Virus record (IMG/VR): IMGVR_UViG_3300028392_000038
Location: 1 to 64,000 of that record
DNA from: a virus
Length of the DNA: 64,000 bases
Reading direction: 5' to 3' (one strand)
Each line of letters begins with the position of its first letter. The stretch's first letter is position 1. This document shows positions 7,583 through 61,366 of the stretch, piece after piece. A program made the position numbers and the translations under genes. Below the pieces are notes generated by a model. The model ran no database searches. It saw nothing but the letters and a program-made list of their open reading frames with translations, and had not been told where the DNA came from.

Positions 7583-7999
7583 ATGAAACATATTAATAAT
7601 TTCAAATTATATTTAGAATCAAAAAAGGATAAATTTCCAAATATACAAAAGAAGGAAATAGATGGATTTACAGTCTATATTGGTAAAGATGCCAAGTCTA
7701 ATGATTATCTAACATTTAATATGGCTGATAATGATGATATATGGATGCATGTAAAAGGTATACCAGGTAGTCATGTTGTAGTTAAAACAAAAGAAATATC
7801 ATCAACTAAAGAAATGTTTATACCCTCTAAAGAAATTTTAAGAAAAGCAGCAGAATTAGCTAAAAAGAATAGCAAGTCTCCAAAAGATGAAAAATCAACA
7901 GTTGTTTATTGTCAAAGAAAGTTTGTTAAGAAAGAAAAAGGAATGAATGATGGTCAAGTCAAAGTAGATTATGTTAATTCCTACGAAATTATAATTTAA
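7583..7999 (+). CDS. Stand-alone NFACT-R (RqcH/FbpA C-terminal-like) RNA-binding domain protein
   Basis: IGKDAKSNDYLT, DIWMHVKGIPGSHVVV, AAELA..NS and V.Y.....VKK...G.V motifs. Confidence 0.85.
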   Translation: MKHINNFKLYLESKKDKFPNIQKKEIDGFTVYIGKDAKSNDYLTFNMADNDDIWMHVKGIPGSHVVVKTKEISSTKEMFIPSKEILRKAAELAKKNSKSPKDEKSTVVYCQRKFVKKEKGMNDGQVKVDYVNSYEIII

Positions 8000-8034
8000 T
8001 ATTTAATATATACTCTAATAAAATTATTATAGAA

Positions 8035-9384
8035 ATGGCAGATCAAACACCAGAAAGAATTAAAATGATATTTACTGAAGAATTTTATAACATTCTAAAA
8101 AAATTAGAAGCTGAAAATAATTATTTAGCCTTTGAATTACTTTGGATGATTGAACCAGATTCTAAATTTCACAATGGATTAAAAATATCAAAAGTAGATG
8201 TATCTAAACAAGATTGGTCATTTGATGTAACAGTAGATGGCAAAGTTATACCTATGAAAATAGGTAAATTTGTGAGATATTATTTTGCAGGAATAATAAG
8301 TGATAAAGAAGCTAGTGAATTTTCAAGATTATATAATAAAATAAGAAAAGGAGAACCTGTTCAACCAGGAAATCAAATTGAAATTAAAGAATTTTCTTAT
8401 AATCCAAAAGATGTTAGGTCTACATTCCTTTCTTTAGTTACTAAAACATATCCACACGGACATGAAGATGAAGTTCTTAAATTCTTACCTTCTTTACAAA
8501 AAGATGAAGTAGGAAACTATTATAAAATAATAGGTAAAACTCCTCAAACAATGTTTACATCTCACTTAGACACAGCCGATAGAGAACAAAAAGATACTAA
8601 ACTATACTCTATGATTGAGAATGATGAGGAGTATATTGTAACAGATGAAAGTACTATATTAGGAGCAGATGATAAGTCTGGTGTGGCAGTAATGTTATAT
8701 ATGATGTCACATAATATACCAGGTCTTTATTACTTCTTTATAGGAGAAGAAAGAGGTGGTATTGGTTCAAATAAGTTATCTAGAATATACGATACAGTAT
8801 CTTATTTAAAGGAAATTAAAAGATGTGTTTCATTTGATAGAAGAAATTATCATTCTGTTATTACTTCACAATTAGGAAGAAGATGTTGTTCTGATGAGTT
8901 TGGAACTGCTTTATGTAAAGAATATAACAAAAATGGACTAGATTTATCATTAGATCCTACAGGAATATACACAGATTCGGCATCATTTATAGATGATATT
9001 AGAGAATGTACTAATATATCAGTAGGTTATTTTCATGAACACACTGGTCAAGAATATCAAAATATGAATTATCTTATCTCACTATGCGAGGCTTCTATAA
9101 AAGTTAATTGGAATTCACTACCAACAATAAGAAAAGTTGGTATAAATCAAGAAATTATACAAAAACACAAAGGATTAATTGCTGATGTTAAATCAACAGT
9201 ATTTGAATTAGAAGTTAAAATGATTGGAGATAATGGTAAAGTCTTTATAAGAGTAGATTTAGATGATTCTGATATAGAATCAATATCTGATGGGTTATCA
9301 TCATTAAAATCACTTCTAATGAAATATAAAATGGATCCAGATATTATTTTTGATGGAACATATCTAAAAATTGAATTGAAATAA
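8035..9384 (+). CDS. M28/M20-family zinc peptidase with extra N-terminal domain
   Basis: SHLDT, GADDKSG, GEE, SFDR, YTDS and HEH metal-binding motifs. Confidence 0.8.
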   Translation: MADQTPERIKMIFTEEFYNILKKLEAENNYLAFELLWMIEPDSKFHNGLKISKVDVSKQDWSFDVTVDGKVIPMKIGKFVRYYFAGIISDKEASEFSRLYNKIRKGEPVQPGNQIEIKEFSYNPKDVRSTFLSLVTKTYPHGHEDEVLKFLPSLQKDEVGNYYKIIGKTPQTMFTSHLDTADREQKDTKLYSMIENDEEYIVTDESTILGADDKSGVAVMLYMMSHNIPGLYYFFIGEERGGIGSNKLSRIYDTVSYLKEIKRCVSFDRRNYHSVITSQLGRRCCSDEFGTALCKEYNKNGLDLSLDPTGIYTDSASFIDDIRECTNISVGYFHEHTGQEYQNMNYLISLCEASIKVNWNSLPTIRKVGINQEIIQKHKGLIADVKSTVFELEVKMIGDNGKVFIRVDLDDSDIESISDGLSSLKSLLMKYKMDPDIIFDGTYLKIELK

Positions 9385-9385
9385 T

Positions 9386-9838
9386 ATGAAACTAAAGAAT
9401 TATAAAGAACTATTCGAAAAATACGAGGATACTGATTATGATGATGAGTCATATTATAATGATGATGAATATCTTTTTGGTAGACCAAATCATTCAAAGA
9501 AAGGAACCGAAGAAGAAGAGGAAGAGGAAGAAATGATTGGTGATTCTGATATGGATAACCTTCTATATTTATTAAGAACTATGTTCAAGAATAAAGGTAT
9601 TAAAGATGTTTATGTTGAACATGATGAACTTGATATAACAATATCAGTTACTATGGGTTATAGAGAAAAGATAGAATCAATTATTAGTGTTTTTGATACA
9701 GCTAAAAGATTGAAAAGAGATATTCTACCTCAATATGATTCAGAATTTGAAATGTGGGAAACTAAAGATGGTAAACCACTTCTAGTATTTAACTTCTATT
9801 ATGGAGAAGGATTAGAAGATGATAATACTCCTTTTTAA
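9386..9838 (+). CDS. Acidic hypothetical protein with capsid-targeting-like N-terminus
   Basis: Starts MKLKNYKELFE; contains a poly-Glu tract. Confidence 0.7.
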   Translation: MKLKNYKELFEKYEDTDYDDESYYNDDEYLFGRPNHSKKGTEEEEEEEEMIGDSDMDNLLYLLRTMFKNKGIKDVYVEHDELDITISVTMGYREKIESIISVFDTAKRLKRDILPQYDSEFEMWETKDGKPLLVFNFYYGEGLEDDNTPF

Positions 9839-9893
9839 TTTTAAATTAAACTTTTTTGACTTTTAGAATATTATATATATTACAACAACACTT

Positions 9894-10271
9894 GGGGATG
9901 TTTTAGAATCGATTGGTAGTGTGGTGGTAGTTATGCAGGTATCGGGTGGTTAAGTGTCCGATTAATAAATTAAGTAACACGTCGTAAATGGCAAAACAAA
10001 TGAAGTAGGAACTCGTGAAGATTTAGTAGCGGCTCTACAAAACAACATGATCTTGGTAGAAGATCTAGCAACTGTCTAATAAATAGTTACTATCAAAAAA
10101 TTCTCCAACCTGATTCACACAGGATAAAAAAGGTGAGACCATTTTTTGTAACTTTTTAGAGTCTGTCCAAAAAAGTATCTATTTTGTTGATTTAGAAAAA
10201 TTAACTAAGCTTGTAAACGAATAATTATAAACAACTATTAAGACACCGGACGCAATATCTGGTCATCTCCA
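9894..10271 (+). ncRNA. ssrA: tmRNA (transfer-messenger RNA)
   Basis: 5' GGGGATG pairs with 3' CATCTCC(A), including the G3.U wobble that specifies Ala. AATCGA follows the D-loop. Helix 2 TTGGTAGT/ACTATTAA, CTAAGCTTGTA element, GAC before the T-arm. Tag ORF 9990-10079 ends in tandem TAA. About 378 nt, followed by a terminator. Confidence 0.88.
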
Positions 10272-10275
10272 CAAG

Positions 10276-10308
10276 AACAAAAGACCATTTCTGGTCTTTT
10301 GTTGTTTT
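10276..10308 (+). terminator. Intrinsic terminator after tmRNA
   Basis: AACAAAAGACCA-TTTC-TGGTCTTTTGTT followed by T-rich sequence. Confidence 0.8.
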
Positions 10309-10317
10309 AAACAAGGT

Positions 10318-10344
10318 AAACTTTATTCCTTTAATTAATATAAT
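10318..10344 (+). promoter_or_regulatory. AAAC-N17-TATAAT putative early/middle promoter (representative)
   Basis: Same architecture before the ATGs at 15607, 20793(-) and 54260, and weakly 59348. In each case 4 nt before the ATG. Confidence 0.5.
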
Positions 10345-10348
10345 AAGT

Positions 10349-10867
10349 ATGATAAATAAATTTGAAGGCAGATATAGATTCTTATCTAATTTTTACCCTT
10401 GTGAAATAGAACATCAAGGTATTAAATACCCATCAGTAGAAAACTTTTATGTAGCAATGAAAGTCAATGACCAACAATTAATAAATGGTAAATACTACAC
10501 ACCCGGAGATTTTAGAGAAATGATAGCTCTTATTAAAAACCCATCTGAGGTTAAAAAAATTGGAAGTAAAGTTAAACTAAGAAGTAATTGGAATGAAAAG
10601 AAATTAGAAGCAATGAACTGGGCAGTTAGACAAAAATTCAAAAACAATCAAGAACTAAAAGAAATGTTACTTAGTACATCAAACCAAGAATTAGTTGAAG
10701 AGAATTATTGGCACGATGTTTACTGGGGAATATGCACCTGTGGTAAATGTGGTAATAAAGGAGAGAATAATCTTGGTAAAATTCTAATGGAAGTTAGAGA
10801 TGAATTAACACCAAGAAATCAAAGACCTTCATTGGAAGATCAAATTAAGAAAAACTCTTTGAAATAA
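10349..10867 (+). CDS. NADAR (YbiA-like) family protein
   Basis: FLSNFY, YPSVE.FY.A.K, KF..N..L...LL.T....LVE, D.YWG and G.N.LGKILMEVR motifs. Confidence 0.9.
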   Translation: MINKFEGRYRFLSNFYPCEIEHQGIKYPSVENFYVAMKVNDQQLINGKYYTPGDFREMIALIKNPSEVKKIGSKVKLRSNWNEKKLEAMNWAVRQKFKNNQELKEMLLSTSNQELVEENYWHDVYWGICTCGKCGNKGENNLGKILMEVRDELTPRNQRPSLEDQIKKNSLK

Positions 10868-10917
10868 TATCCTCTTTTAAAAATGGCTGACATACATGTA
10901 AGAAATCTTTTACTTTA

Positions 10918-10950
10918 AGATCATTGTTTTTACAATGGTCTTTTATTTTT
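10918..10950 (+). terminator. Probable intrinsic terminator
   Basis: AGATCATTGT-TTTT-ACAATGGTCT followed by a T-tract. Confidence 0.6.
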
Positions 10951-11004
10951 ATGAAAATTATCAAATAACTTCGGAGGGAACTATATATTTTTTATATATA
11001 GTAT

Positions 11005-11826
11005 ATGAGAAAATTAAGAAAGTTAACATATGATCAAGAATTGGAAGTTTTTAACGAACGAGAATCAGATAATAGAAGAAATGATATTATATCAAAATGG
11101 GGAATATCAGAAAGACATTATAAAAATATAATTTTAAAATTTGGAGGTGAGTTAAAAAAAATACCAACTTGGTGTAATTTTAATATAGATTACTTTGAAT
11201 CTATAGATACCGAAGATAAAGCTTACTTTTTAGGATTTATTGTTGCAGATGGGTGTGTTAGTGATAGCACAAATAACATTAGAATAACACAGAAAGAAAC
11301 TGATATTTTATATGAATTTAAAAAATATACTAATTCAGAAGGTAATGTATTTACTTCAAAAAGTAGAAATATTTCAAGTTTTGGTTTATCATCCGCTAAA
11401 ACTAAGAGTGATTTGGAAAAATTAGGAATACATTCAAATAAAACAATGGTAGTTAAATATCCAAATATACCTGATAACTTACATAATCACTTCATGAGAG
11501 GAGTATTTGATGGAGATGGGTGTATATCTATACATCATGATAAAAGAGATAATAGTGACAGAGGACAAGTTAATATATGTTCTGGTAGTTATGATTTTAT
11601 AAAAGAATACTATGATAAATTGGTTGAATTTGCTAATTTAAGTGGTAAAAATAAAATAAGATGCCCTAAAGGAACATATTATGTTATTGATTGGGGTGGT
11701 TTAACTGATGTTGAGAACATTTACTATTTTTTATATAAAGACGCGAATGTGTTTTTAAAAAGAAAAAAGGAAACTTTTGATAAAGTAGTATCTATAACTA
11801 AAGATAAAAATAAATATAGAAAATAA
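11005..11826 (+). mobile_element. Free-standing double-motif LAGLIDADG homing endonuclease
   Basis: AYFLGFIVADG and HFMRGVFDGDG motifs with an N-terminal HTH-like segment. Its stop codon abuts the methylase ATG. Confidence 0.85.
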
Positions 11827-12774
11827 ATGTGTGCAGCAATTTCTTACTTTGGAGGCAAGTCCTCAAATGTTTTCATGGAATTAATAAATTCAAAAATACC
11901 AAAAGATGGTAGTATAAAAACATACTTAGAACCATTTAGTGGTAGTTTTGCAACATATATGGATGACCCAAAACTAAAGTTTGATGTTGTTATCTATAAT
12001 GATAAAAATCGTCACCAGACGAATTTATATAAGTGTTGTGCTACTCCAGTTGAGTTTGTTATTCACTTAGAAAATCTTAAAAAAACTTTATTACACACAA
12101 CAGAAACAGACCCTTTGAAAAAATGGGATTTCTATAAAAAAGTTTATAATGAGTATATCAAAAATGACTTTTTAGATAATATGGATTTTGAGATAGGCGA
12201 TTTTGAAAAAGCTGCTATTTATGCTTTCTTAATCACATCTAGTTTTTCAAGTGTATATCCAAGGGGAGGTGGTTTCTCAGGCTATAAAAAAGATAAAGAC
12301 CGTTTGAAATTAGAAGTTCTTATTGATAAGTTAAAGAAAAATAAATACACCGATAAGTTATCTAGTATTAAAGAGTTTCTTAATATTGATTTTGAAGAGC
12401 TTATTAATAAATATGACTCAGAAGATACTTACTTGTATTTGGACCCACCATATCACAGACCTGATGAAAATGGTGATGATGATGCTAAAAGATTATCTTG
12501 GTATGGTGCTGATAAAGAAGGTATGTTTGGACCAGCATCACATAGAAGATTATTAGACTTGATTAAAAAATCAAAATGTCGTTGGTCATTATCTTATTAT
12601 TATTTTCCTTTATTAGAAGAATTATTACCAAGAGATAAATATATTTGGACTGAGAAAGAAGTATTTAGAAGTTCAGCACAAGGTGGTAATAATTCAGGAG
12701 GTAAAGGTGAACAAGCTAAGGGAGTTGAGTTATTAATTATGAATTATGATCCAACAACTGGTAAAAAATTATAA
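11827..12774 (+). CDS. D12-class (Dam-like) DNA adenine methyltransferase
   Basis: YFGGK, YLEPFSGS, YND, YLDPPY and ELLIMNY motifs. Confidence 0.85.
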   Translation: MCAAISYFGGKSSNVFMELINSKIPKDGSIKTYLEPFSGSFATYMDDPKLKFDVVIYNDKNRHQTNLYKCCATPVEFVIHLENLKKTLLHTTETDPLKKWDFYKKVYNEYIKNDFLDNMDFEIGDFEKAAIYAFLITSSFSSVYPRGGGFSGYKKDKDRLKLEVLIDKLKKNKYTDKLSSIKEFLNIDFEELINKYDSEDTYLYLDPPYHRPDENGDDDAKRLSWYGADKEGMFGPASHRRLLDLIKKSKCRWSLSYYYFPLLEELLPRDKYIWTEKEVFRSSAQGGNNSGGKGEQAKGVELLIMNYDPTTGKKL

Positions 12775-12776
12775 TT

Positions 12777-12998
12777 ATGGCAAGAGCAATCAATAATACA
12801 TTTCAAATTACCAATCCAGGTGGAACAAATGCTATAAATGTTGATTCTGATGGTCATACTGTTATTAGTAAGTTAGTTCTTTTAGATGAGAAGACTGGTA
12901 ATAAATGGGAGATTAAAATATCAGATGGTGAGTTAATAGCCGAGCCTCTTGAATTAGAAGATAAAAGAGAATATAAACTAAATAAAATACTTAAATAA
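12777..12998 (+). CDS. Small hypothetical protein ending in KREYKLNKILK
   Basis: 73-aa ORF in the same operon, followed by a terminator. Confidence 0.65.
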   Translation: MARAINNTFQITNPGGTNAINVDSDGHTVISKLVLLDEKTGNKWEIKISDGELIAEPLELEDKREYKLNKILK

Positions 12999-13035
12999 TA
13001 AAAAACCTCAGATTTCTCTGAGGTTTTTTATTATT
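12994..13035. terminator. Bidirectional terminator between convergent genes
   Basis: AATAATAAAAAACCTCAGA-TTTC-TCTGAGGTTTTTTATTATT. Confidence 0.9.
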
Positions 13036-13417
13036 ATTTCTTTATTAGTTTCATTATATCATCATAACCTGCCTGAATACTGGTGTGATTTTGGTATAAG
13101 TCTACTACAATATCCCATATTTTATCATCTATAGATGATTCACCTTCTTTATATCTGTCAGAAAATACACCTTCATTAGTTTCTTCTAATTCATCAATAG
13201 AATCTAATTTATCTTGAACTTCTTTAGGACTTAAATCATCCATTTTACGAGTAACTTTGTTGAATTTATATCTACCGTTACCGATGTGTTGTTGTCCATC
13301 AGGAGTATTAGGAACGGTTGATCTTCTAACCTTTTTTAATTCTTCTTTTTCAGATTCTATATTATTTGAAAAATCACCAAAAGTGGCTACTTTTCTATTT
13401 ACATTATAACTATCCAT
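13034..13417 (-). CDS. Hypothetical protein
   Basis: 127-aa ORF preceded by AATATATA (13443-13436). Confidence 0.65.
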   Translation of the reverse strand: MDSYNVNRKVATFGDFSNNIESEKEELKKVRRSTVPNTPDGQQHIGNGRYKFNKVTRKMDDLSPKEVQDKLDSIDELEETNEGVFSDRYKEGESSIDDKIWDIVVDLYQNHTSIQAGYDDIMKLIKK

Positions 13418-13453
13418 TTTTATTATTAGTTTTTTTATATATTAAATATTTTT

Positions 13454-14098
13454 TTACTTTTTTAGAGTAATTGTAACGGTTGCACTTTTATGACCATATC
13501 CATCAGTAGTAATTTTTTTATCAACATTAAATTTTGAAAAATCTACACCTCTAAAAAGACCATTCCATTTTCTATCAGTATATTCAGAATTTCCAAAATT
13601 ACCACCACAAGTAACAACAATCTTTAATTCATCAGGATATAATCTTTTAACTAATCCATAGTTGAAATCACTTTTAGCATCATTTGTTTTAGCACTCATA
13701 TCATTATAAAGTTTTTGAATTGTGAATAAATCACCTTCTACTTTAGCTTTTTGTACAAAATTAATAACTATATAATTTTTCCAATTTGAATTAATAGAAA
13801 CTCTTGAACTTTCTAGTCTATTCTTAAGAGCTATTAGTTCATCTAAAAAGTCCCAAAATCTTTCATCTACAATTCTTTCAGAATTTTCACCAAGTTTAAA
13901 ATCATTTTTAAAATGAATACTCATTGATTTATATCCTGCAAATTCACCATCAGTTATGGTACTTGGTGTTGAGAAATCATATTCAACTCCTAAATCATTA
14001 ATAGGGATAAGTAAATCATCTAATTGTTCTTTAGTTAAATCAGTTATATCTTCAGTAGATTCATTTATATATGTAACAAACTTTTCTAAATATCTCAT
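13454..14098 (-). CDS. Hypothetical protein with capsid-targeting-like N-terminus
   Basis: Starts MRYLEKFVTYINES; translationally coupled (TAATG) to the upstream gene. Confidence 0.7.
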   Translation of the reverse strand: MRYLEKFVTYINESTEDITDLTKEQLDDLLIPINDLGVEYDFSTPSTITDGEFAGYKSMSIHFKNDFKLGENSERIVDERFWDFLDELIALKNRLESSRVSINSNWKNYIVINFVQKAKVEGDLFTIQKLYNDMSAKTNDAKSDFNYGLVKRLYPDELKIVVTCGGNFGNSEYTDRKWNGLFRGVDFSKFNVDKKITTDGYGHKSATVTITLKK

Positions 14099-14790: not shown

Positions 14791-14793
14791 AAT

Positions 14794-15540
14794 TTATTTA
14801 AATTGTTTATCATAAGACTTTCTTTTTAAGTCCATTATTTTTTCAATATACCCATTTCTCCTAAGTAATTTGAAAACTAAATTACCAATAGATAACTCAC
14901 CACCTTCACTTTCCAACCCACTCTTTCTATAGTTTTTAACTTTATCCCATACTTTTTGAACCTTTTCAACAAAAGCATCATATTTATCTTCATCAACTTC
15001 ATCTTCTAAATCATCAACTAACATCATAACAGACTTGCCCTTTTCAGATATCATATCTTCATCAGGAGTAAATTCTATTTTTTCAGGTTTAACATTCCAT
15101 TTATTATTTAATAAGGAAAATATACCTGTTGATTTATGTGGCTCAGATATGTCTTGTATATAAACTTCTACTTCATACCCTTTTATTTTAATATCATGAT
15201 TTTTATTCCAAATATTCTTAACACTATCAGCATATTTTTTAACCAATTCAACATCTTGGTTAATATCATTAAAATCTATTAATATATGTAAATCATAATC
15301 AGAATATTTTTCAGACCAGTTATAATTAGCCAAAGATCCTGTAAGAATAATGTCTTTAACATCGGCCTTTAATTCAGTAGACTCATAGAAATCTTGAGCG
15401 ATTTTTAAAAGGTCTTCTCTGACTTCTCCATTAATTTCAAAGTTATCCCAAAGTTTAGGGTTTAAACTTTCTTTGATTCTGAATGATTTAACAGCGTTCA
15501 AATCAGATTGGTTGAATTCTAAATACTTCACAAGTTTCAT
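14794..15540 (-). CDS. Pol-beta-superfamily nucleotidyltransferase
   Basis: IILTGSLANYNW..YSDYDLH (GS..DxD) plus EVYIQD. The start is likely ATG 15540, 5 nt after AATATATA. Confidence 0.75.
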   Translation of the reverse strand: MKLVKYLEFNQSDLNAVKSFRIKESLNPKLWDNFEINGEVREDLLKIAQDFYESTELKADVKDIILTGSLANYNWSEKYSDYDLHILIDFNDINQDVELVKKYADSVKNIWNKNHDIKIKGYEVEVYIQDISEPHKSTGIFSLLNNKWNVKPEKIEFTPDEDMISEKGKSVMMLVDDLEDEVDEDKYDAFVEKVQKVWDKVKNYRKSGLESEGGELSIGNLVFKLLRRNGYIEKIMDLKRKSYDKQFK

Positions 15541-15606
15541 AAATGTATATATTAATTCCAAATTCTCATTTAGTAAAACTTATTATATTATATAGATATA
15601 ATTGAT

Positions 15607-47942: not shown

Positions 47943-48014
47943 ATTTTAAAACGCATTTTCTTATATATTAAAAATATAAAATCTATAATCATTTTAGTTT
48001 CTAATTATTTATCA

Positions 48015-48024
48015 TATATTTGTA
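48015..48024 (+). promoter_or_regulatory. TATATTTGTA Bacteroidota-type -7 promoter box (also at 51918 and 61799)
   Basis: Matches the TAnnTTTG consensus; identical 10-mer before three + strand genes. Confidence 0.55.
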
Positions 48025-49193: not shown

Positions 49194-49808
49194 ATGGGAA
49201 AAATACAAATAGAAGGATTGATATTTATAAGTGGATTACTAATTGGTTGTCTTATAACTTATATACTTTCTAATTTAATTAGTAGGTCTAAAAATAAAAG
49301 TATATTAAAAGATAATATAAATCAATTTATTCAAATACTTAAAAATATAAAATCAGATAAAACTAAATTCAAAAGTAGAGTAAATAACACAATCTACATA
49401 GAAACTAATTTAAGTAATTATGGTGATGTTGGTCTTGTTTGTCTTTTAGATAAAAAAGACATCTCTATTTTTAAAGATGAAAAATGCATCTATACATCTA
49501 ATCTAATAAATAGGGATTTAATAAATGAAATAACAAAAGCCATTGAATTAAAACACAATAAAGATATAAATGATGTTGTTGAGATATTAGGATTTGTTTT
49601 TTCAAGAGAAGATTTTGAAAAGTCATTCAATGTTAATATTAAAGAAATAAAAAATGGTGTTAAAAAAGAGGAGTCTGATATTGAAAAAATTCTTAAAAAG
49701 AATAAGAAAAGATTTGATATTGATGAAATCTTAGATAAGATAAGTAAAGTAGGTATTAAAAATTTAACAGAAGAAGAAAAACAATTTTTAAACAACTATA
49801 ACAAATAA
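49194..49808 (+). CDS. Membrane-anchored protein with C-terminal DIDEILDKIS..G...LT.EEK.FL (DUF6576-like) motif
   Basis: N-terminal hydrophobic helix and the C-terminal motif. Confidence 0.65.
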   Translation: MGKIQIEGLIFISGLLIGCLITYILSNLISRSKNKSILKDNINQFIQILKNIKSDKTKFKSRVNNTIYIETNLSNYGDVGLVCLLDKKDISIFKDEKCIYTSNLINRDLINEITKAIELKHNKDINDVVEILGFVFSREDFEKSFNVNIKEIKNGVKKEESDIEKILKKNKKRFDIDEILDKISKVGIKNLTEEEKQFLNNYNK

Positions 49809-52219: not shown

Positions 52220-52807
52220 TCAAATGTCATAAACACCATTAAATTGGTGAAAATCTTCAAATCCATTAAGAGAATCTCTGTGTCTTTGCCAATTTTCCCA
52301 CATATTTAGTATAGGAGGTTTGGGTGGTAAATACTCACTCATTTGTCTTATTCTTTGATAATACATCATATCTACATCTTTGAAAATATTATTCATTCTT
52401 TCCAAGGCAAATTTATTAGCGTCTTTTTCTAACTCAATATAAGATTTGAAAAATTCTTCTTTATCTTTTCTAAATATTTCAGCATGAACATCATGACCTT
52501 CTCTTCTATATTGCATAACATGACCCATTTCATGAAATATTAAAAATATAACCATTGGGAATGTTTGTTCTGTTAAGAACTGACTATTCACTACAACCGA
52601 TTCATCTTTAAAATAATATCCAAAGAAATTTCTATTTAATTGTCTAAATTCAATTTTTACATCAGGATATTTAGAAAGTTCCTCCAAGAAAGAAGGAATA
52701 AGTGTAGGGTATTTATTGGATATCCTATTTAAATAGACTTCTAACTCTTGTGGTATTTGATTATTATTCTCATTTTCAAAGATTTTATATCTTTTTAAGT
52801 ATTTCAT
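52220..52807 (-). CDS. HExxH zinc metalloprotease-like protein with capsid-targeting-like N-terminus
   Basis: FHEMGH..Q and downstream LEKDANKFA; starts MKYLKRYKIFENE. Confidence 0.7.
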   Translation of the reverse strand: MKYLKRYKIFENENNNQIPQELEVYLNRISNKYPTLIPSFLEELSKYPDVKIEFRQLNRNFFGYYFKDESVVVNSQFLTEQTFPMVIFLIFHEMGHVMQYRREGHDVHAEIFRKDKEEFFKSYIELEKDANKFALERMNNIFKDVDMMYYQRIRQMSEYLPPKPPILNMWENWQRHRDSLNGFEDFHQFNGVYDI

Positions 52808-52848
52808 ATTAGTATTAATATTTAGAATATATCATGATGTTACATGTT

Positions 52849-53556
52849 TTAAGAAATCCAGATAAAATGATCATTTGATTCTTTTTCAAATTTATAATCA
52901 CCTAAACAATCAGTTATTGTTTTAATTAGTTTTTCTTCAGTAAAAATATCAGACAATTTAGATTCAAATATATCTTTATCTATTAATCTGGACAATTCAA
53001 TAGAAATATCAGTAACTATTTCAAATTTACTTTTAGATATTTCATCATAAAGATGATCAAACATATTGTATTTAATTACATTTATTTCTTCTAAAGAATA
53101 AATTATAACATTACAATCTTGTTTTTCCCAATCAGAAATTTTGAATATGTGTTTATCAGAATCAACTGAATCAATATGACCTAAATTAGTATCAAAATAA
53201 TCAGCCAAAACTTTTTCCATTTTTTGAGTTGATTTTTCAATTCCCTTATATAAACATTCTTTCATAGAATGAATTTTGAATTCACTTGATTCAAATACTT
53301 TAAAAGATTCAAAAGTAATAACTCCATCTTTTTCCATAGCCTCTCTATCATCTAAAATATCTTTTAGAATTACATCAGCTCTTTTAATATCTTTCATCTT
53401 GTTCTTTTCTAAAAATCTACTAAATCTTTCAGAACCAGGTTGTAAATATCTTTTAAGATTTGATGGTCTTATTTTATGTTGTTCAGTATACTCATCAAGT
53501 AATCCATTTATTATTTGATAATACTTATTAACATCTTCTCTATTATTAATCGACAT
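52849..53556 (-). CDS. Hypothetical protein
   Basis: 235 aa; internal VITFESFKVFES. Confidence 0.7.
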   Translation of the reverse strand: MSINNREDVNKYYQIINGLLDEYTEQHKIRPSNLKRYLQPGSERFSRFLEKNKMKDIKRADVILKDILDDREAMEKDGVITFESFKVFESSEFKIHSMKECLYKGIEKSTQKMEKVLADYFDTNLGHIDSVDSDKHIFKISDWEKQDCNVIIYSLEEINVIKYNMFDHLYDEISKSKFEIVTDISIELSRLIDKDIFESKLSDIFTEEKLIKTITDCLGDYKFEKESNDHFIWIS

Positions 53557-53842
53557 CTTGATTGTTATCTTTTTTCAAATCAAATAAGCTAACAGCTTCT
53601 TGATCCTCTTTTCTATCTTCTATATTAATACCTCTAACTTCAGCAATTTCATACCATTCATCTTCAGGTAATTCTTCAATTTCAGTTGAACCACATTTAC
53701 AAGATTTAGATTCTTTGTTAAATTCTTTCCAAATATTATCACACTCATCACATGAATAGTAACTAGTTAAAAAGTTTTTAGTAGTAACTGGAACCGTCTG
53801 TGAAAAGTCAAATGTTTCAAATTTTTTCAAATGTTTCATCAT
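53546..53842 (-). CDS. Zinc-ribbon protein with capsid-targeting-like N-terminus
   Basis: Starts MKHLKKFETF; YSCDEC...CKCGS. Confidence 0.7.
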   Translation of the reverse strand: MMKHLKKFETFDFSQTVPVTTKNFLTSYYSCDECDNIWKEFNKESKSCKCGSTEIEELPEDEWYEIAEVRGINIEDRKEDQEAVSLFDLKKDNNQDVD

Positions 53843-54167: not shown

Positions 54168-54192
54168 TTATTAACTACTTCCGAATGAAACT

Positions 54193-54220
54193 AAAAGAGA
54201 GAATTAAATTCTCTCTTTTT
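54193..54220 (+). terminator. Intrinsic terminator
   Basis: AAAAGAGAGAATT-A-AATTCTCTCTTTT followed by a T-tract. Confidence 0.8.
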
Positions 54221-54259
54221 TATTTTTAAACTTATTCAAGTAAATTATAAATAATTAAT

Positions 54260-54985
54260 ATGAGAATTGAATGCCAAGATAATTTAATATTTATGAAATC
54301 AATAGAAGATAATTCTATTGATGTTATTTATTGTGATATTCTATACGGAACCGGTAGAAAATTTTCAGACTACCAAGATTTAAAACCAATCAAATCAGAT
54401 ATTGAAGAACACTATATACCTCGTATAAAAGAAATGCACCGTGTTCTAAAAGAAACAGGAACTATTTATCTTCAAATGGATACTAAAATAAATCATTGGA
54501 TCCGTTGTATTATGGATGATATCTTTGGATATGAAATGATGAGAAATGAAATTATTTGGTTTTATAATACCGCACCAAGAAAGAAAATGGACTTTGGAAA
54601 AAGACATGATATAATTCTAAGATATACAAAATCAGATAATTATAAATTTAATCCACCAAGAGAACCTTATTCACTATCAGCTCCAAGAGGATATGAAAAA
54701 GAAAAATACTACCATCCAGAAGGTAAAGTTATTGGTGATGTTTGGCAAATGAATATATTAGGTCAAAATGATAAGAAAGAAAGAGTAGGGTATGATACTC
54801 AAAAACCTAAACAACTTATAGAAAGAATTATAACTTCATCTTCTGATGAAGGAGATACAATTGCTGATTTCTACTTAGGAAGTGGAACAACAGCTTTAGT
54901 TGCTAAAGAATTAAATAGAGATTTTATTGGATGTGATATAAATCCAAAGGCAATTGAACTCACTAATCAAAGATTAAATAAATAG
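54260..54985 (+). CDS. Beta-class N6A/N4C DNA methyltransferase
   Basis: IDVIYCDILY (motif IV position), RNEIIW.Y, YDTQKP..LIERII and DFYLGSGTT motifs. Confidence 0.85.
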   Translation: MRIECQDNLIFMKSIEDNSIDVIYCDILYGTGRKFSDYQDLKPIKSDIEEHYIPRIKEMHRVLKETGTIYLQMDTKINHWIRCIMDDIFGYEMMRNEIIWFYNTAPRKKMDFGKRHDIILRYTKSDNYKFNPPREPYSLSAPRGYEKEKYYHPEGKVIGDVWQMNILGQNDKKERVGYDTQKPKQLIERIITSSSDEGDTIADFYLGSGTTALVAKELNRDFIGCDINPKAIELTNQRLNK

Positions 54986-55030
54986 ATTCTTCAATTTTAT
55001 ATATAGATTATATACTTTAATATATAATTT

Positions 55031-55933
55031 ATGAACTTAAAGCAAACAAGAGATTACTATAATAATAAACCCGTTGAATATGTGGTGAGAGAACATTATG
55101 AGTTAATTGAAGATAATGAGTATATTCCAAGATTTTCACTTAAAAATGTTAAAGACATCGCTGATATTCCTATCAATGAGCCTATTAAATATACTGAAGA
55201 AGTTATAAAGAAGTGTATTAAGTATGGTATGGTTATATTAATAAACTATAAAGGTGAAAAAGATTCTCATTTTGCAGGACATGAAAGGGTTGTTTACCCT
55301 ATGGTTCTTGGTAAATCAACACAAGGTAAAGTTCTTTTAAGAGGGTGGCACTTAAATGGTTGGTCTGTTTCAAATAAAAGACATATTAATAAAATCTGGC
55401 GTTTATTCAGAGCTGATAGAATTCTATCTGTTACTTTCACTGGTTCTTTTTACCGTTTACCTCCAGCTGGTTATAATATGAATGACAAAGGAATGAGAGG
55501 TGGTATTATAGTAAAAGCTGACTTTGCTCAAATTAGAAAGAATCAACAAGATTTAGTTAATAAGAATAAAATTCAAAATAGAGAAGAGGTTACTCTTGGA
55601 GATGAACAAAGAAAATTCATAACTATTAGAGTAAAAGAAACTGATACTAAATTAGATTTAATAAAACCATTTGAAAATGCTTATATCAATAATTCTAAAG
55701 ATATGGCAAATGTTAGATTATCATTTCTTAAAAGTGTTTATGGAAATAAATATGTCGCTATATTAGGAGCACTTGGTCAACCAGGTAATACTGTTAAAAT
55801 ATTAACAGATAAAGGTTCTCAATTAGGAGTTTATAAAGTATTAGATTCTATTACAGGTGAGGTACTAAAAAGCATTAAAAATGTAAAAGGAAACACTATT
55901 TATGATCTTTATCTGTTTGATAAAAAAGTTTAA
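55031..55933 (+). CDS. WYL-like domain protein
   Basis: I.Y......R...P..LG......LRGW.......WRLFRADRI pattern. Confidence 0.6.
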   Translation: MNLKQTRDYYNNKPVEYVVREHYELIEDNEYIPRFSLKNVKDIADIPINEPIKYTEEVIKKCIKYGMVILINYKGEKDSHFAGHERVVYPMVLGKSTQGKVLLRGWHLNGWSVSNKRHINKIWRLFRADRILSVTFTGSFYRLPPAGYNMNDKGMRGGIIVKADFAQIRKNQQDLVNKNKIQNREEVTLGDEQRKFITIRVKETDTKLDLIKPFENAYINNSKDMANVRLSFLKSVYGNKYVAILGALGQPGNTVKILTDKGSQLGVYKVLDSITGEVLKSIKNVKGNTIYDLYLFDKKV

Positions 55934-55955
55934 AAATAGAATTAATATATAGTTT

Positions 55956-57110
55956 ATGATACAGAATTTTAATAATTTCATTAATGAGGAATTAAGAATA
56001 GATAAGTTAGATGATAAATCGCTTAATCAATTAAAGTTAAATTTAATGGATAGGTTATCAGAATATAGAACTTACATTCTTAATAACATAATTTATAATA
56101 TGGCTACTAATAAAGTAGAGTATAAAGAATTTGAAAACATAGATATTGCAACTATATTAAGAGAACTTAATAATGAATTCACAAATGAAGTTGTTCAAGA
56201 TATGAACATAGAAACTTTTTTAAGAAAGTTAAATCAAATATTAGACCTTCAAAAAAGAAACACTAAAAGAAGAATAAGAGAAGAGTTTGATGAATATTAT
56301 AATTCAATTGAACAAAGAGTTTCTAAAATATCTAGAGGTGAAGATGAAGAACATTTTGATGCGGTTGAAGGTGAAGACTCTTTAATAACTAGAAAACAAT
56401 ATGAAACTGAGAAGTTTGGACTACAAGTTGAATTGTTAAAATTACAAGAATGGGTAGTTAAAAATAAGAAAAAAGTGGCTATTGTATTTGAAGGAAGAGA
56501 TGCTGCTGGTAAAGGATCTACTATTAAAAGATTTACAGAATACCTAAATCCAAGAGGATTTAAGATTGTAGCACTTGGATTACCAACTGATGAAGAAAAG
56601 AAAAATTGGTTTGCGAGATATGAAAAATATATGCCTCAACCAGGTGAAATAGTTTTCTTTGACCGTTCTTGGCACAATCGATCAATTGTTGAGCCAGCGA
56701 TGGGTTATTGTTCAGAAGAACAATATATTGACTTCATGAATAATGTAAATAAATGGGAGGATCACTTAGTGAAAGATGAAGATATTATCTTAATTAAGTT
56801 TTGGTTCTCTATCACTAAAGAAAAACAAGAGTTAAGATTTGATTTAAGAAAATCAAACCCATTAAAATATTGGAAGTTTTCTCCAAATGATGCTAAAGTA
56901 ATTGATAAATGGGATATTATTGGTAAATATAAAAACCAAATGTTTAGTAAAAATTCAACACCTTTGTGTCCGTGGGTAATTATAAATAGTAACGATAAAA
57001 AGATAGGTAGATTAAATGCCATCAGATATGTACTGAGTGTTATTCCATATGATGGAAGAGATGAAAAATCTTGTGAATATTACCCAGAAGTTGTAAATAT
57101 TTTAAAATAA
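55956..57110 (+). CDS. ppk2: Polyphosphate kinase 2 with ~140-aa N-terminal extension
   Basis: LQVELLKLQ.W, FEGRDAAGKG, LNPRG, FDRSW, K.WFSI, WKFSPND and PW motifs. Confidence 0.92.
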   Translation: MIQNFNNFINEELRIDKLDDKSLNQLKLNLMDRLSEYRTYILNNIIYNMATNKVEYKEFENIDIATILRELNNEFTNEVVQDMNIETFLRKLNQILDLQKRNTKRRIREEFDEYYNSIEQRVSKISRGEDEEHFDAVEGEDSLITRKQYETEKFGLQVELLKLQEWVVKNKKKVAIVFEGRDAAGKGSTIKRFTEYLNPRGFKIVALGLPTDEEKKNWFARYEKYMPQPGEIVFFDRSWHNRSIVEPAMGYCSEEQYIDFMNNVNKWEDHLVKDEDIILIKFWFSITKEKQELRFDLRKSNPLKYWKFSPNDAKVIDKWDIIGKYKNQMFSKNSTPLCPWVIINSNDKKIGRLNAIRYVLSVIPYDGRDEKSCEYYPEVVNILK

Positions 57111-58018
57111 TGGATAAAAGAATATTATCATTTGATAAGTTCAAATTACATTGTAACGACATATTTAATAATAAATATGATTATACTAAATCAGAGTATC
57201 TAGGGATGAAACACCCTATAGAAATAATATGTCCTATACATGGAGAGTTCACACAAAAGGCACATAGTCACTATTTGGGACATCACTGTTTTAAATGCTC
57301 AGGTAATAAAAAGTTAAAAAATGAGGAAATAATAGAACAATTTGTTAAAAAACATGGAGGTAGATATGACTACTCAAAAGTAAATTATGTAAATAATAAA
57401 ACGAGAGTTGAAATAGTATGTAAAATACACGGATCTTTCTACCAATCACCATATGAACATAAAAATGGACAAGGTTGTCCAAATTGTATTAAAAATAGGA
57501 AATTAGATAATAACATGTTTATAGAATTGGCTAATGATGTACACGATTTTAAATATAAATATAGTGATGATTATTTTAATAGTAAAACAAAGGTAAATAT
57601 TATCTGTTCAAAACATGGTGAATTTAAGATGACGCCAAATCATCACATAAGGGGACAAGGTTGTCCAAATTGCAAAAGTTCATTAGGTGAACTACTGGTT
57701 AGAAAATATTTAACTGATAATAAGATTAATTATGAAAGACAGAAGCTCTTTAAAGATTTGGTTAATAGTAATAAAAGACATTTATTTTTTGACTTCTATT
57801 TAACAGATCATAATATCTGTATAGAATATGATGGTATACAACACTTTCAACCAGTTGTCGCATTTGGTGGTCAAAATTCATTTAATAAAATTTTAAAAAA
57901 TAATGAAATAAAAAATAAATATTGTCTAATTAATAATATAAAGCTAATAAGGATACCATATTTTAAAATAAAGGAGATTAAAAATATTCTAGATATAGAA
58001 ATTAATATAAAAAATTAA
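57110..58018 (+). mobile_element. Putative homing endonuclease: three zinc-binding repeats (DUF723-like) plus a PD-(D/E)XK nuclease
   Basis: Three I.C..HG.F......H..G..C..C repeats; FDFYL...IEYDG.QH. Confidence 0.75.
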
Positions 58019-58067
58019 TATATAATAAAATAAAGGTTATTAACCTAGAAAAAATAAATATAATAAA

Positions 58068-58652
58068 ATGAGTATTAAATCATTCGATTCATTTAATGAA
58101 AAAAAATGGATACAAGACGCGATTAAAAATCCAGGAGCATTGAAAAAGTCAATGGGTAAAGGTGAAGATGAGAAACTTACTAAAGCTGAAATAGAATCTG
58201 AGTTAAAAGAACTTAAAGCTAAAGATAAAGATCCTAAAAAACCAGGAGCTCAATTAGGTAAAAAAGATGCTACTAAAAAAAGAAGATTAGAGTTAGCTAA
58301 AACCTTAAGATCATTCAAAGAACACCAAGAAACAGATAATTATATGTTCTTTGGTAATTTAGAAACTATGAAAAGATTAGTTGATGAGTTATTAGAAATG
58401 GATCATTCACAAATTGACTCTATCTTAAATGAACATGATTGGGCATCTGACCATATTTCAGTAGCTACTGAAAACCTAGAACAAGTATTTGATTTCTTAG
58501 CAGGACATAATTTACCAGATGGTGAAATGGAACATGAAATGGAAGAACATGAAGAAGAACACCACGAAGAAGAACACCACGAAGAAGAGGAAGAACACGA
58601 AGAGGAAGAAGAAAATGGTGGTTTAATGAAATTCGGAGAATTCGGATCTTAA
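58068..58652 (+). CDS. Hypothetical protein with capsid-targeting-like N-terminus and His/Glu-rich tail
   Basis: Starts MSIKSFDSFNE; EEHHEEEHHEEEEE tract. Confidence 0.75.
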   Translation: MSIKSFDSFNEKKWIQDAIKNPGALKKSMGKGEDEKLTKAEIESELKELKAKDKDPKKPGAQLGKKDATKKRRLELAKTLRSFKEHQETDNYMFFGNLETMKRLVDELLEMDHSQIDSILNEHDWASDHISVATENLEQVFDFLAGHNLPDGEMEHEMEEHEEEHHEEEHHEEEEEHEEEEENGGLMKFGEFGS

Positions 58653-58671
58653 AAAAAAATAAATAAAACAA

Positions 58672-59259
58672 ATGTCATACACAAGAGAACAAATACAATC
58701 TGCTATTTTAGCAAAAGGATATCTTTGGTTTGAAGATGATTCAAAGGGTCCAAACATTGTTGGGGTCAGAAACTCAGCAACTGGTCAAGTGGTAACAAAC
58801 GCATTTGATGATACTTTAACAATATCTTATAAAGAAAATGGTGAATGGAAATTTAATTCTTGGCCAGCAACTACTGACCCTGGTAAAAAAGGTGTTTTAG
58901 AATACCACAATGCTGCTGGTGTTGCTAGATTAGTTGAAGGTCAATATATCGGATCACATGGAATTGGATTACACCAAGGAAAATATGAAGCTCTTAGACA
59001 AGCAAAAAATGTTAAAGTTTATAGAGATGCTAATAAGGACTTAACTTATAATGAGGATAAAACACAAGAAGGTGTTTTTGGTATTAATATTCATAAGGCT
59101 GGAGCTGATTCTACCTATGTAGAAAACTGGTCAGAAGGATGTCAAGTATTCAAAAAATCTGCCGACTTTGATGCGTTTATGATTATATGTAATAAGTTCA
59201 AATCTAAAAATGGTAACTCATTTACTTATACTTTAATTGAATCATCTGATATAAAATAA
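58672..59259 (+). CDS. YkuD/L,D-transpeptidase-like cysteine enzyme (possible cell-wall hydrolase)
   Basis: GINIH-x11-SEGC motif resembles the HxxSxGC catalytic signature. Confidence 0.55.
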   Translation: MSYTREQIQSAILAKGYLWFEDDSKGPNIVGVRNSATGQVVTNAFDDTLTISYKENGEWKFNSWPATTDPGKKGVLEYHNAAGVARLVEGQYIGSHGIGLHQGKYEALRQAKNVKVYRDANKDLTYNEDKTQEGVFGINIHKAGADSTYVENWSEGCQVFKKSADFDAFMIICNKFKSKNGNSFTYTLIESSDIK

Positions 59260-59271
59260 TTAAAACATAAT

Positions 59272-59301
59272 AAAAAAGACCTCTCATTTGGGAGGTTTTT
59301 T
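59272..59301 (+). terminator. Intrinsic terminator
   Basis: AAAGACCTCTCA-TT-TGGGAGGTTTTT followed by a T-tract. Confidence 0.75.
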
Positions 59302-59347
59302 GTTTTTAAATAACTAAACAAAAGTTGATATTTAAGATACAAAATAA

Positions 59348-59758
59348 ATGGAAGAGCTGGATAGATTTTTACATTTCTTATTAGAGAATATAGATGATAG
59401 AAGAGTGCATATTTCTAAGAAAGTAAAATATGGGTTCCAACATTTCTATCTAACATTTAATATAGACCAGGTAGATAAAGATGGACAAAAGTTGTATCAC
59501 AATAACATACTATCTATTACAATAGATAACAGAAATAATTGTATTGATATAGATTCAGAGATAAATGGTAAGTCTATTGTTATAGAAGATGAAGAGTTTG
59601 TTAGAAGGTGGTCTACTATCTTAGATGAATTTTTAAGTAGAGAGATTACTCAAAAGATATCTGGTATTATAGATATAACTCTAAGCTCTTGTGAGAATAA
59701 GAATTTACACAGAGATTATAAAATGAAAAAAATATTTAAAGACGATGAATCTATATAA
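59348..59758 (+). CDS. Hypothetical protein
   Basis: 136 aa; C-terminal HRDYKMKKIFK is a variant of the RxxKLxxIL motif. Confidence 0.65.
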   Translation: MEELDRFLHFLLENIDDRRVHISKKVKYGFQHFYLTFNIDQVDKDGQKLYHNNILSITIDNRNNCIDIDSEINGKSIVIEDEEFVRRWSTILDEFLSREITQKISGIIDITLSSCENKNLHRDYKMKKIFKDDESI

Positions 59759-60239
59759 TCAAGAAGAAGTAGATAGAATTAATAAAGTTAAAGATACCAA
59801 TGATAAATTAGAAGATTTCTTTAATGGAAAAAGAGGAGAGTGGAATAAAATTGTTGAACCACTTTTTAAAGTTCTCACTACCGATTTATCTAATCCTTCA
59901 AATTCTAAACACATATTAGAAGCTCAGTCTTTAGCTCTAACACATAGACAACAGATTAATGAACAGATTAATTTCTTCTTAAATAAAAGAAGTAAGGAGA
60001 CTACTAAGATTAAGAAATTAAGACAAGATAAGTTTGTATTTTATGCTACTGGATTTGGAATCAAAACAAACTTGGGTGAAAAAGGAATTCTTATTGACGG
60101 TCACTTAGCAGAAAATGATAGATCATTGGAACTAATAGAATCTTATATTGAATTCCTAAGAGATACTGTGAGAAATTTAGAAAGTTTATCTTATTCAATT
60201 AAGAATATGATTGAGTTATTGAATTACTTAGGTAAGTAA
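59745..60239 (+). CDS. UvsY-like recombination mediator (tentative)
   Basis: Helical 164-aa protein; C-terminal IEFLRDTVRNLESLSYSIKNMIE resembles the end of T4-like UvsY. Confidence 0.5.
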   Translation: MNLYNQEEVDRINKVKDTNDKLEDFFNGKRGEWNKIVEPLFKVLTTDLSNPSNSKHILEAQSLALTHRQQINEQINFFLNKRSKETTKIKKLRQDKFVFYATGFGIKTNLGEKGILIDGHLAENDRSLELIESYIEFLRDTVRNLESLSYSIKNMIELLNYLGK

Positions 60240-61366
60240 TGCTTAACTTCTATTCCAAGCTTTTTAAGTTCTTCATGTCCTTGGCAACAATCATCACAAA
60301 GTTCATCTTTACCATATGAACCAGGATAAACTAAATTCATGTATAATTTACCGTTGCAACGATCACAAGGATCACATTCACCTGTTACAGAATGTAACAT
60401 ATAATCACCCTCACTTGGTAGGTTAGAAAGTAGTTTTTTCTTTTCATCTAAGAAACACATAGTATCAATAAATGGATAATGTTTAAAGTCACCATCTAAT
60501 TTAACAGTTACCTCACCAAAGACATCTTTGCCCTTATATACAAATAAAACATTGTTTTCAATATATGAGTTCATTTTCTTTTTATATAGGAACCCATTAT
60601 CTTCAGCGAATTTCTTAAATCTTAATTCATCAGAATCACGATTAACATAAACTCTGTCCATGAAATACTTAGCCTCACAAGGAGAACTTTTTAATTTCCA
60701 AACAATAGCTCTTCCGTGTATCATATCATCTTTATCTACATAAATAAGCAATTGAACCTTTGATTCATTTTCTGTATAAATATCAAATGTTTTCTTACTC
60801 TCATCCGACATACAAGATCCACCTAAACTACCAGATCTACTAAAGTATTTTTTCTCATTATAATATTTTGCAATATCAGATCCTTTAACTAATTTGAATG
60901 ACATAGAAGTATCTATTTTAGATGCTTTGAAAGCATTAACAAAGTTTTCTATATCTTTATCTTTAACATCATCAAGATCACCACTATCATCATTGATTAA
61001 ATCAACAAGATATTTAATTATCTTTCCAATTTTAACCTCGTTTCTACCTTTCATTGTATATGGTAGGGAAGCATCATCATCCGGATCCCAATCTTCAGGA
61101 ACCTTAGTATTCATTATAAATGATAACTTATCATTTGAATCAGTTAGATCAAAATAGTTTTGTTTAACATCAGAATCATCAAAATAATTCTGATCATCAA
61201 TAATATCAATAATAGCTTGTGATATTTCACCTACTTTACCTTTTTCTTTTGAAAGGTTTTGTAACTTAAACATGAAATCGGATGACCCATAAATTTCAGC
61301 TTCTAAAAGTAATAATAAATTACTCTTGAAACTCTCTAACAAAAAACTATTGTATTTCTTAATCAT
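60224..61366 (-). CDS. Phage protein with GSCM / GRAxxW / MDRxY motifs and capsid-targeting-like N-terminus
   Basis: Motifs visible; N-terminal domain resembles that of the 8035 peptidase; C-terminal Cys pairs. Confidence 0.7.
   Translation of the reverse strand: MIKKYNSFLLESFKSNLLLLLEAEIYGSSDFMFKLQNLSKEKGKVGEISQAIIDIIDDQNYFDDSDVKQNYFDLTDSNDKLSFIMNTKVPEDWDPDDDASLPYTMKGRNEVKIGKIIKYLVDLINDDSGDLDDVKDKDIENFVNAFKASKIDTSMSFKLVKGSDIAKYYNEKKYFSRSGSLGGSCMSDESKKTFDIYTENESKVQLLIYVDKDDMIHGRAIVWKLKSSPCEAKYFMDRVYVNRDSDELRFKKFAEDNGFLYKKKMNSYIENNVLFVYKGKDVFGEVTVKLDGDFKHYPFIDTMCFLDEKKKLLSNLPSEGDYMLHSVTGECDPCDRCNGKLYMNLVYPGSYGKDELCDDCCQGHEELKKLGIEVKHYLPK

Follow-up and report, generated by a model that had tools for sequence, protein, structure and literature searches.

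An N-terminal peptide on unrelated late-type proteins of a huge phage resembles the capsid-targeting sequence of T4

The internal proteins of phage T4 carry a capsid-targeting sequence (CTS), M-K-T-Y-Q-E-F-I-A-E, which the prohead protease gp21 removes by cutting after Glu. According to suppressor work in T4, targeting depends on CTS residues 4 and 7 and processing on residues 8 and 10; the gp21 cleavage site lies after L/I-x-E (PMC9026906). The peptide of about ten residues stands at the N-terminus of otherwise unrelated proteins, namely IPI, IPII and IPIII, and in the short propeptides of Alt and gp24. Here we describe a comparable N-terminal peptide, hereafter the tag, that is shared by many unrelated proteins encoded by the IMG/VR virus record IMGVR_UViG_3300028392_000038. 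The window that we analyzed is the first 64 kb (64,000 nucleotides) of this linear virus contig, which has 115,972 bp and a G+C content of 30%. Its nearest public relatives are LR756502.1, LR745206.1, LR756504.1 and LR756501.1; LR756502.1 is complete at 642 kb, and its head region shares ~79% DNA identity and 82% protein identity with the contig. The four largest genomes described by Al-Shayeb et al. (2020) were placed in the Mahaphage clade, for which Bacteroidetes hosts were predicted, and that paper makes no mention of such a tag (PMC7162821).

In phiKZ-like giant phages, a gp21-related protease likewise cuts head-internal proteins after Glu (the substrates of phiKZ gp175 and SPN3US gp245), the propeptides are believed to direct proteins into the prohead, and the packaged and ejected set runs to tens of different proteins. 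Those propeptides differ from the tag in being 80–130 residues long, in sharing no short tag and in being cut at S/A-x-E sites; moreover, ~8–19 proteins are processed there, against more than 100 tagged here. Encapsulins resemble the tagged set in that a short conserved terminal peptide directs diverse enzymes to an HK97-fold shell, whereas their cargo peptides usually stand at the C-terminus, attach to the shell protein itself, stay on the cargo and do not resemble the tag in sequence. Both the T4 CTS and the long propeptides carried by ejection proteins in phiKZ-like phages have been described before; our literature search found no paper that joins capsid targeting with huge phages or reports a shared short tag in them. 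We consider it probable that the tag is a greatly expanded T4-like capsid-targeting and processing signal, which loads many enzymes into the prohead.

A recurrent peptide confined to gene starts

The initial annotation had claimed a common capsid-targeting-like start on nine proteins of the window, and all nine N-termini are indeed present at ORF starts. ORF 14794–15561 in fact begins with the ATG at position 15540, which follows a promoter-like motif by 13 nt, and in ORF 53546–53842 the tag begins at the second Met. These nine genes, and a tenth at the window edge, are as follows (bit scores in brackets where available).

7583–7999, plus strand: tagged stand-alone NFACT-R RNA-binding domain protein; tag at residues 1–13, domain at 24–129 (14.2 bits)
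9386–9838, plus strand: very acidic 150-residue protein with a weak tag, co-transcribed with the head module; also tagged in its LR756502 orthologue (7.9 bits)
13454–14098, minus strand: tagged 214-residue protein without a known domain (15.8 bits)
14794–15540, minus strand: 248-residue protein with a weak tag and a nucleotidyltransferase-like motif, G-S...D-x-D; phrog_36119 (6.0 bits)
52220–52807, minus strand: tagged HExxH metalloprotease-like protein (26.1 bits)
53546–53842, minus strand: tagged 97-residue Cys-rich protein; its LR756502 orthologue is tagged (21.1 bits)
55956–57110, plus strand: tagged PPK2 polyphosphate kinase; tag at residues 1–12, phage-specific N-domain to ~130, PPK2 domain at 145–368
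58068–58652, plus strand: tagged 194-residue protein with an acidic His/Glu-rich tail (10.5 bits)
60224–61366, minus strand: tagged 380-residue protein, alone in having a tagged paralogue in the contig, at 75191–77080 (12.6 bits)
63290–64000, minus strand: body of a tenth tagged gene, whose tagged start lies at contig position 64060, past the window edge (19.8 bits)

The NFACT-R, PPK2 and HExxH assignments made earlier were confirmed, while the features named "nucleotidyltransferase" and "Zn ribbon" are short motifs with no Pfam match.

Aligned with MAFFT, 24 tags from the contig fell unaided into a single register, M-(K/R-H/Y)-[ILV]-K-x-[YFW]-x-x-[FY]-..., with the hydrophobic column and the first aromatic column filled in all 24. 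The short form of the tag reads M-I-K-K-Ar-x-x-Ar-[ILV]-x-E, where Ar is an aromatic residue. A commoner form, M-K-H/Y-L-K-x-Ar-x-x-Ar-E/x, has one extra turn; it keeps both aromatic positions and places a Glu 1–3 residues past the second of them.

A first scoring matrix, trained on its own members, picked out 16 of 132 ORF starts in the contig, compared to 0.06 expected from internal windows. Because this matrix was self-trained, the test was redone in two ways, with segments starting at internal Met residues and early genes as controls and a threshold of 10 bits. A profile of the contig tags reached the threshold at 158 of the 966 ORF starts of LR756502.1 and in 2 of 2947 internal-Met controls, and both of these top controls resemble mis-called gene starts. 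Conversely, an independent profile built from 138 LR756502.1 tags, all on proteins without a homologue in the contig, reached it at 20 of the 132 contig ORF starts and in none of 438 internal-Met controls. This profile scored seven of the nine originally claimed genes strongly and two weakly, those starting at 9386 (7.9 bits) and 15540 (6.0 bits). Profile scanning, a check named in the initial annotation, showed the tag to be present genome-wide and confined to ORF starts in both the contig and LR756502.1. The genome scan also returned ORF-start matches in LR756504 (27), LR756500 (23) and LR756501 (7), and no candidates in GAP32, Lak-B2 or T4. ORF 59348–59758, which was scored as tagged by the self-trained matrix and not by the independent profile, was dropped. 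The tag set amounts to about one sixth of the genes on the fragment and ~16% of genes overall.

The proteins behind the tags are unrelated to one another. After removal of the first 20 residues, the 26 tagged proteins of the contig contained one related pair, and the 158 tagged bodies of LR756502 fell into 150 clusters. A short conserved start on so many bodies could in principle be the recognition leader of one modifying enzyme, as in ribosomally synthesized and post-translationally modified peptides. A single radical-SAM gene was found in the 642-kb relative and none in the contig, and the 158 tagged genes are spread genome-wide with no constant neighbour. We regard a leader of this kind as barely credible, and the absence of a constant radical-SAM neighbour led us to reject it.

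Late-type units and selection on the peptide

Two promoter-like motifs, [AT]ATATATA and TAnnTTTG, divide the genes into blocks. The former occurs at 73 non-coding sites in the contig and upstream of every structural gene, from which we call its units late-type. It typically starts 12–14 nt 5' of the ATG, a distance so short that late mRNAs would be leaderless or nearly so. One example precedes the first tagged gene.

7571–7578, plus strand: late-type promoter-like motif AATATATA, 12 nt 5' of the ATG of the tagged NFACT-R gene

The second motif, a Bacteroidota-type -7 element, lies before untagged blocks at ~48010–48020 and 61795–61803 in the window; further sites lie at contig positions 66240, 74955, 104850, 105870, 107900 and 111070. 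Its placement is consistent with a Bacteroidota host and with early transcription by the host polymerase.

The earlier claim that nearly all tagged genes lie in [AT]ATATATA units holds for the contig, where this is true of 25 of 26 tagged genes and 63 of 106 untagged ones (Fisher p=1.5e-4). The sole tagged gene outside overlaps the stop of a gene within such a unit, and no tagged contig gene is truly in a TAnnTTTG host-type unit; the early genes, in units with host promoters, are without the tag. The association is stronger in LR756502, with 147 of 158 tagged genes in [AT]ATATATA units compared to 294 of 808 others (p=3e-43). Judging by this association with the promoter motif, the tagged genes are likely co-expressed with the head proteins. 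What the sequences show is a real peptide that stands only at N-termini, on unrelated bodies, and is tied to late-type units.

Since the motif stands 11–17 nt before the ATG in 73 of the 92 tagged LR756502 genes that have one of their own, and the mRNAs would be nearly leaderless, the conserved start might be a nucleic-acid feature and the peptide itself without a role. It could then reflect a near-leaderless start context, or a cassette of promoter plus first codons spread by recombination. The K, L and S codons of the tags do lean slightly to A-rich forms, as such a feature would lead one to expect, but for F, Y, E, N and I, tags and gene bodies make equal use of the synonymous codons. The tag columns vary within amino acid classes (I/L/V and Y/F/W), 51 untagged genes have the same promoter-to-ATG spacing, and 66 tagged ones have no promoter motif of their own. 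Codon use, within-class variation and the 51 untagged genes make an RNA-level explanation highly improbable, and we rejected it on codon use and promoter spacing.

Orthologues point the same way, as they keep the tag pattern while the residues between its key positions change. Among 117 homologues of the tagged PPK2 (67–100% identical), I2, F5, F8, I9, E11 and E12 are nearly fixed, whereas positions 3, 4, 6 and 7 take many residues, so that only the amphipathic and Glu positions are held. The tag is under selection at the amino acid level.

The tag also appears as an addition to the enzymes that bear it. Bacterial PPK2 structures align solely to residues 130–371 of the tagged PPK2, and the NFACT-R domain (residues 24–129) matches the C-terminal domain of RqcH. 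As these alignments are confined to the domains, the cellular homologues lack the tag, a point that the initial annotation had wanted confirmed. The orthologous NFACT-R protein of LR756502 begins with 105 residues of different sequence that bear no tag, which indicates that the tag is a graft, as had been proposed. In an AlphaFold model, residues 2–12 of PPK2 are predicted with lower confidence as a separate helix ahead of the folded domains.

The head module and the T4 capsid-targeting sequence

The window holds a T4-type head module, which is read on the plus strand.

170–1873, plus strand: T4-type portal protein, gp20-like (Pfam Portal_T4, E=2.4e-55)
3586–5700, plus strand: prohead protease (gp21-like, residues ~1–170) fused to a long scaffold-like C-terminal part, 704 residues (BLASTP, tblastn)
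4486–4850, plus strand: 42-nt tandem repeat in the scaffold part, about ten 14-residue units Y-S-E-Y-[IL]-A-E-[SNH]-L-D-K-N-I-[AS] (TRF period 42, 8.7 copies)
5780–7501, plus strand: gp23-like major capsid protein with a T4-like propeptide (Pfam Gp23, E=4.4e-29)
5882–5908, plus strand: tag-like element predicted to close the capsid propeptide, residues 35–43, ending in I-N-E (by likeness to the stretch before the T4 gp23 cut)

The four best-conserved columns of the tag, an aromatic, a second aromatic three residues on, an I/L and a Glu two residues further, have the spacing of T4 CTS positions 4, 7, 8 and 10. The motif [LI]-x-E occurs within residues 5–18 of 49% of tags, compared to 16% of other starts (p=3e-17), and the residue after it is most often S, E, A or N. 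A Glu lies no more than three residues past the second aromatic in 70% of tags and 20% of other starts. When the contig-tag profile was run with HMMER over 295 T4 ORF starts, ipI, ipIII and ipII ranked fourth, sixth and ninth, with weak E-values of 0.2–0.4. Second of the 295 was T4 gp61.1, a 54-residue protein encoded on the minus strand, which begins M-K-T-F-K-E-F-I-K-E, a near-perfect CTS.

The two systems thus share a short N-terminal tag on unrelated proteins, aromatics three apart followed by I/L-x-E, a phage with head genes of the gp20, gp21 and gp23 types and, here judged by promoter motif, expression together with those genes. They differ in scale, with 3–5 clients in T4 against 20–26 in 116 kb here and at least 158 in the 642-kb relative. 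The tag described here mostly has an extra N-terminal turn (M-K-H/Y-L-K), its bodies are acidic and many are enzymes, and protease and scaffold form one polypeptide. The likeness is at the level of the motif, and the tag is known here from sequence alone.

The gp21-type protease lies 2 kb from the first tagged gene. BLASTP aligned it to T4 gp21 with 30% identity over 107 residues (E=6e-6), placing its G-E-F-D-H-P and V-S-S-R on His85 and Ser140, which we take to be the catalytic pair of T4 gp21. It is the sole Peptidase_S77 match in the contig and, likewise, in LR756502 (18.6–21.5 bits against a cut-off of 27, the contig protein scoring 21.5), and tblastn matched the protease-scaffold to genes annotated "prohead core scaffold and protease". 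A sequence search of the PDB with it gave nothing useful.

The scaffold part is rich in candidate cleavage sites, with 5 [LI]-x-E per 100 residues compared to 1 in the proteome. In this it resembles T4 gp22, as scaffolds rich in [LI]-A-E sites, and it differs from gp22 in being fused to the protease and in its regular array of 14-residue repeats. The repeat core Y-S-E-Y-[IL]-A-E is the core of the tag and is two positions off the T4 CTS core, Y-Q-E-F-I-A-E. Counted with the pattern Ar-x-x-Ar-[ILV]-x-E, which was chosen with the tag consensus already known, the contig proteome holds 25 copies, 8 at ORF starts, 10 in the protease-scaffold and 7 elsewhere, these last drawn from ~36,000 other non-N-terminal residues. 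The corresponding numbers in LR756502 are 26, 11 and 46. Across four genomes the scaffold has 10–13 copies of the core; the array is conserved in LR756502, LR756504 and LR756501 and degenerate in LR756500. Among the 2947 LR756502 controls, no genuine internal segment matches the tag profile better than the one immediately preceding the array.

The same core recurs in the capsid protein. Its residues 8–24 align to residues 6–22 of T4 gp23, whose 65-residue propeptide is removed by a cut that follows the stretch F-G-S-F-L-T-E, ending at Glu65. The capsid protein described here has the start of that propeptide in common with gp23, and its own propeptide closes with the tag core; by analogy the maturation cut would fall after E43. 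In LR756502, a tagged protein of 81 residues aligns from its first residue to capsid residues 32–89, with its tag Glu on the Glu of I-N-E. This genome carries two small paralogues of pieces of the capsid N-terminus, at 80294–80539 and 315773–316270; one is this 81-residue protein and the other, of 165 residues, is untagged and covers the propeptide (residues 8–117).

A gp21-type protease nearby, scaffold repeats of the tag core and the same core at the putative capsid cleavage site all lend support to the interpretation of the tag as a capsid-targeting signal. The best explanation is that the tag is either homologous to the T4 CTS or closely analogous to it in function, and greatly expanded in this huge-phage clade. 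It would be an amphipathic N-terminal helix of 10–13 residues (hydrophobic, K, K, aromatic, x, x, aromatic) with a gp21-type cleavage site, [ILV]-x-E, at its end. Late in infection, tagged proteins would be made alongside the head proteins, and the helix would dock on the scaffold core, whose 14-residue repeats bear the same core motif as the capsid propeptide. Proteins docked in this way would become enclosed in the prohead, where the scaffold-fused protease would cut after Glu and free the cargo. The freed proteins may then remain in the head with the DNA and probably be delivered to the next host cell. The initial annotation had read the tagged enzymes as packaged and injected cargo; our computational tests support the cargo reading, and docking, packaging, cleavage after Glu and injection would follow by analogy to T4. 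We put forward more tentatively, as possible but somewhat doubtful, the full form of this model, in which about one sixth of all genes (at least 158 in 642 kb) specify a head-loaded proteome whose tags mimic the scaffold repeat unit and which is released by the protease and co-injected with the DNA.

The tagged proteins and the destination of the tag

Tagged products of the contig include the NFACT-R protein, PPK2, the HExxH protease, a lysozyme, a DUF5824 protein and a second metallopeptidase-like protein. The lysozyme gene lies at contig 111122–111955, with the phage lysozyme domain at residues 142–269; if packed in the head, its product would be an ejected wall-degrading enzyme instead of an endolysin. 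A Pfam scan of 148 tagged proteins of LR756502 found lysozyme, T4-type RNA ligase 1 (Rnl1), NUDIX, methyltransferase, SET, Acb1-like 2H phosphoesterase, DHH, HNH and Toprim domains and one PQ-loop membrane protein, and matched nothing in more than 90% of them. With a median length of 164 residues and a median pI of 5.1, the tagged proteins are small and acidic. The PPK2, NFACT-R, lysozyme, Rnl1, NUDIX, Acb1-like, DHH and SET members would fit roles in host take-over or counter-defence.

Such a set may also be seen as material for the prohead that does not outlast it, most tagged proteins being dispensable accessories of the core or scaffold, lost by degradation or expulsion when the head matures. 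T4 gp67, gp68 and gp22 enter the core and are then degraded, the great majority of tagged bodies have no known domain, and the acidic 150-residue protein encoded at 9386 is located in the head module. Conserved catalytic domains such as those of PPK2, lysozyme, RNA ligase and NUDIX would make little sense in a filler, and we hold this fate for most of the proteins to be improbable.

Alternatively, the tag might be a docking or sorting signal shared by late proteins whose destination is other than the head interior; a common chaperone, another part of the virion, a patch of membrane or a compartment that the phage builds inside the cell are candidates. This would account for an amphipathic helix found only at the N-terminus of unrelated late proteins, it would accommodate ~160 clients more easily, and it would suit the acidic bodies and the PQ-loop membrane protein, which are poor cargo for a head. 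It leaves unexplained the match to the four functional positions of the T4 CTS, the enrichment of [LI]-x-E, and the fact that the core is found both at the putative capsid cleavage site and within the scaffold repeats. Nor does the tag have the hydrophobic core typical of secretion signals: it lacks the uninterrupted run of at least 7 residues that follows the basic N-region in Sec, Tat and lipoprotein signals, and instead alternates K, E and N with single hydrophobic residues before turning acidic. Taken together, a destination outside the head seems to us rather unlikely.

Several observations weigh against loading into the prohead, the explanation that we prefer. A tagged set of ~16% of genes far exceeds any known virion cargo, its bodies are acidic whereas T4 internal proteins are basic, and it includes odd cargo in the PQ-loop protein and the HNH endonucleases. 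The canonical [LI]-x-E is present in about half of the tags, the T4 CTS is matched with weak scores, and the scan of the T4 genome with the tag profile found no candidate. The Pfam Peptidase_S77 score of the protease is under its cut-off. Run against whole proteins, the full tag profile gives the scaffold protein no high rank, so that the link to the scaffold rests on the seven-residue core and the one segment before the repeats, and the tandem copies of the core count as one event, not ten independent ones. Finally, the label "late" is drawn from the position of the motif before structural genes; a search with T4 gp55 found no homologue in the contig or LR756502.

If the tag does load the prohead, a sizeable share of what the largest phage genomes encode would be cargo that arrives ready-made along with the DNA. 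In the full form of the model this would amount to a protein "first-strike kit" whose diversity exceeds that of T4 by one to two orders of magnitude, and would turn the scaffold repeat array into a multivalent docking rack. The tag would act as an extra scaffold repeat, and the principle of the T4 CTS would reach far past the T-even phages. The tag would also predict the virion-internal proteome of uncultivated megaphages from sequence, and would mark more than 100 mostly unknown small proteins per genome as candidates for take-over and anti-defence functions, among which Acb1-like, RNA ligase, NUDIX and PPK2 members are already visible. It could further serve as a packaging tag in engineering Bacteroidota phages.

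The head module contains one more enzyme, which is untagged.

8035–9384, plus strand: M20/M42-like aminopeptidase (phrog_4191 "peptidase", E=6e-65; PDB tripeptidase/peptidase T, E=1.6e-6)

Related phage genes are annotated aminopeptidase. The gene lies directly 3' of the capsid gene, in one unit with the acidic protein encoded at 9386, and this arrangement is conserved in LR756502. That it trims or recycles the released tag and scaffold peptides is pure speculation. Downstream of the module is a 510-nt gap free of ORFs (9839–10348), and ARAGORN found no tRNA or tmRNA anywhere in the window. Likely mobile genes have entered the head region, namely a GIY-YIG-like ORF between the portal and protease genes (1892–2533), judged from the ORF start alone, and a LAGLIDADG endonuclease beside a D12 adenine methyltransferase (Pfam; 11005–12774). 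A second shared element, Pfam DUF6576 (E=8e-8; approximately R-x-D-D-I-L-D-K), follows the tag in the protein encoded at contig 70566–71042 and forms the C-terminus of the protein encoded at 49194–49808 in the window.

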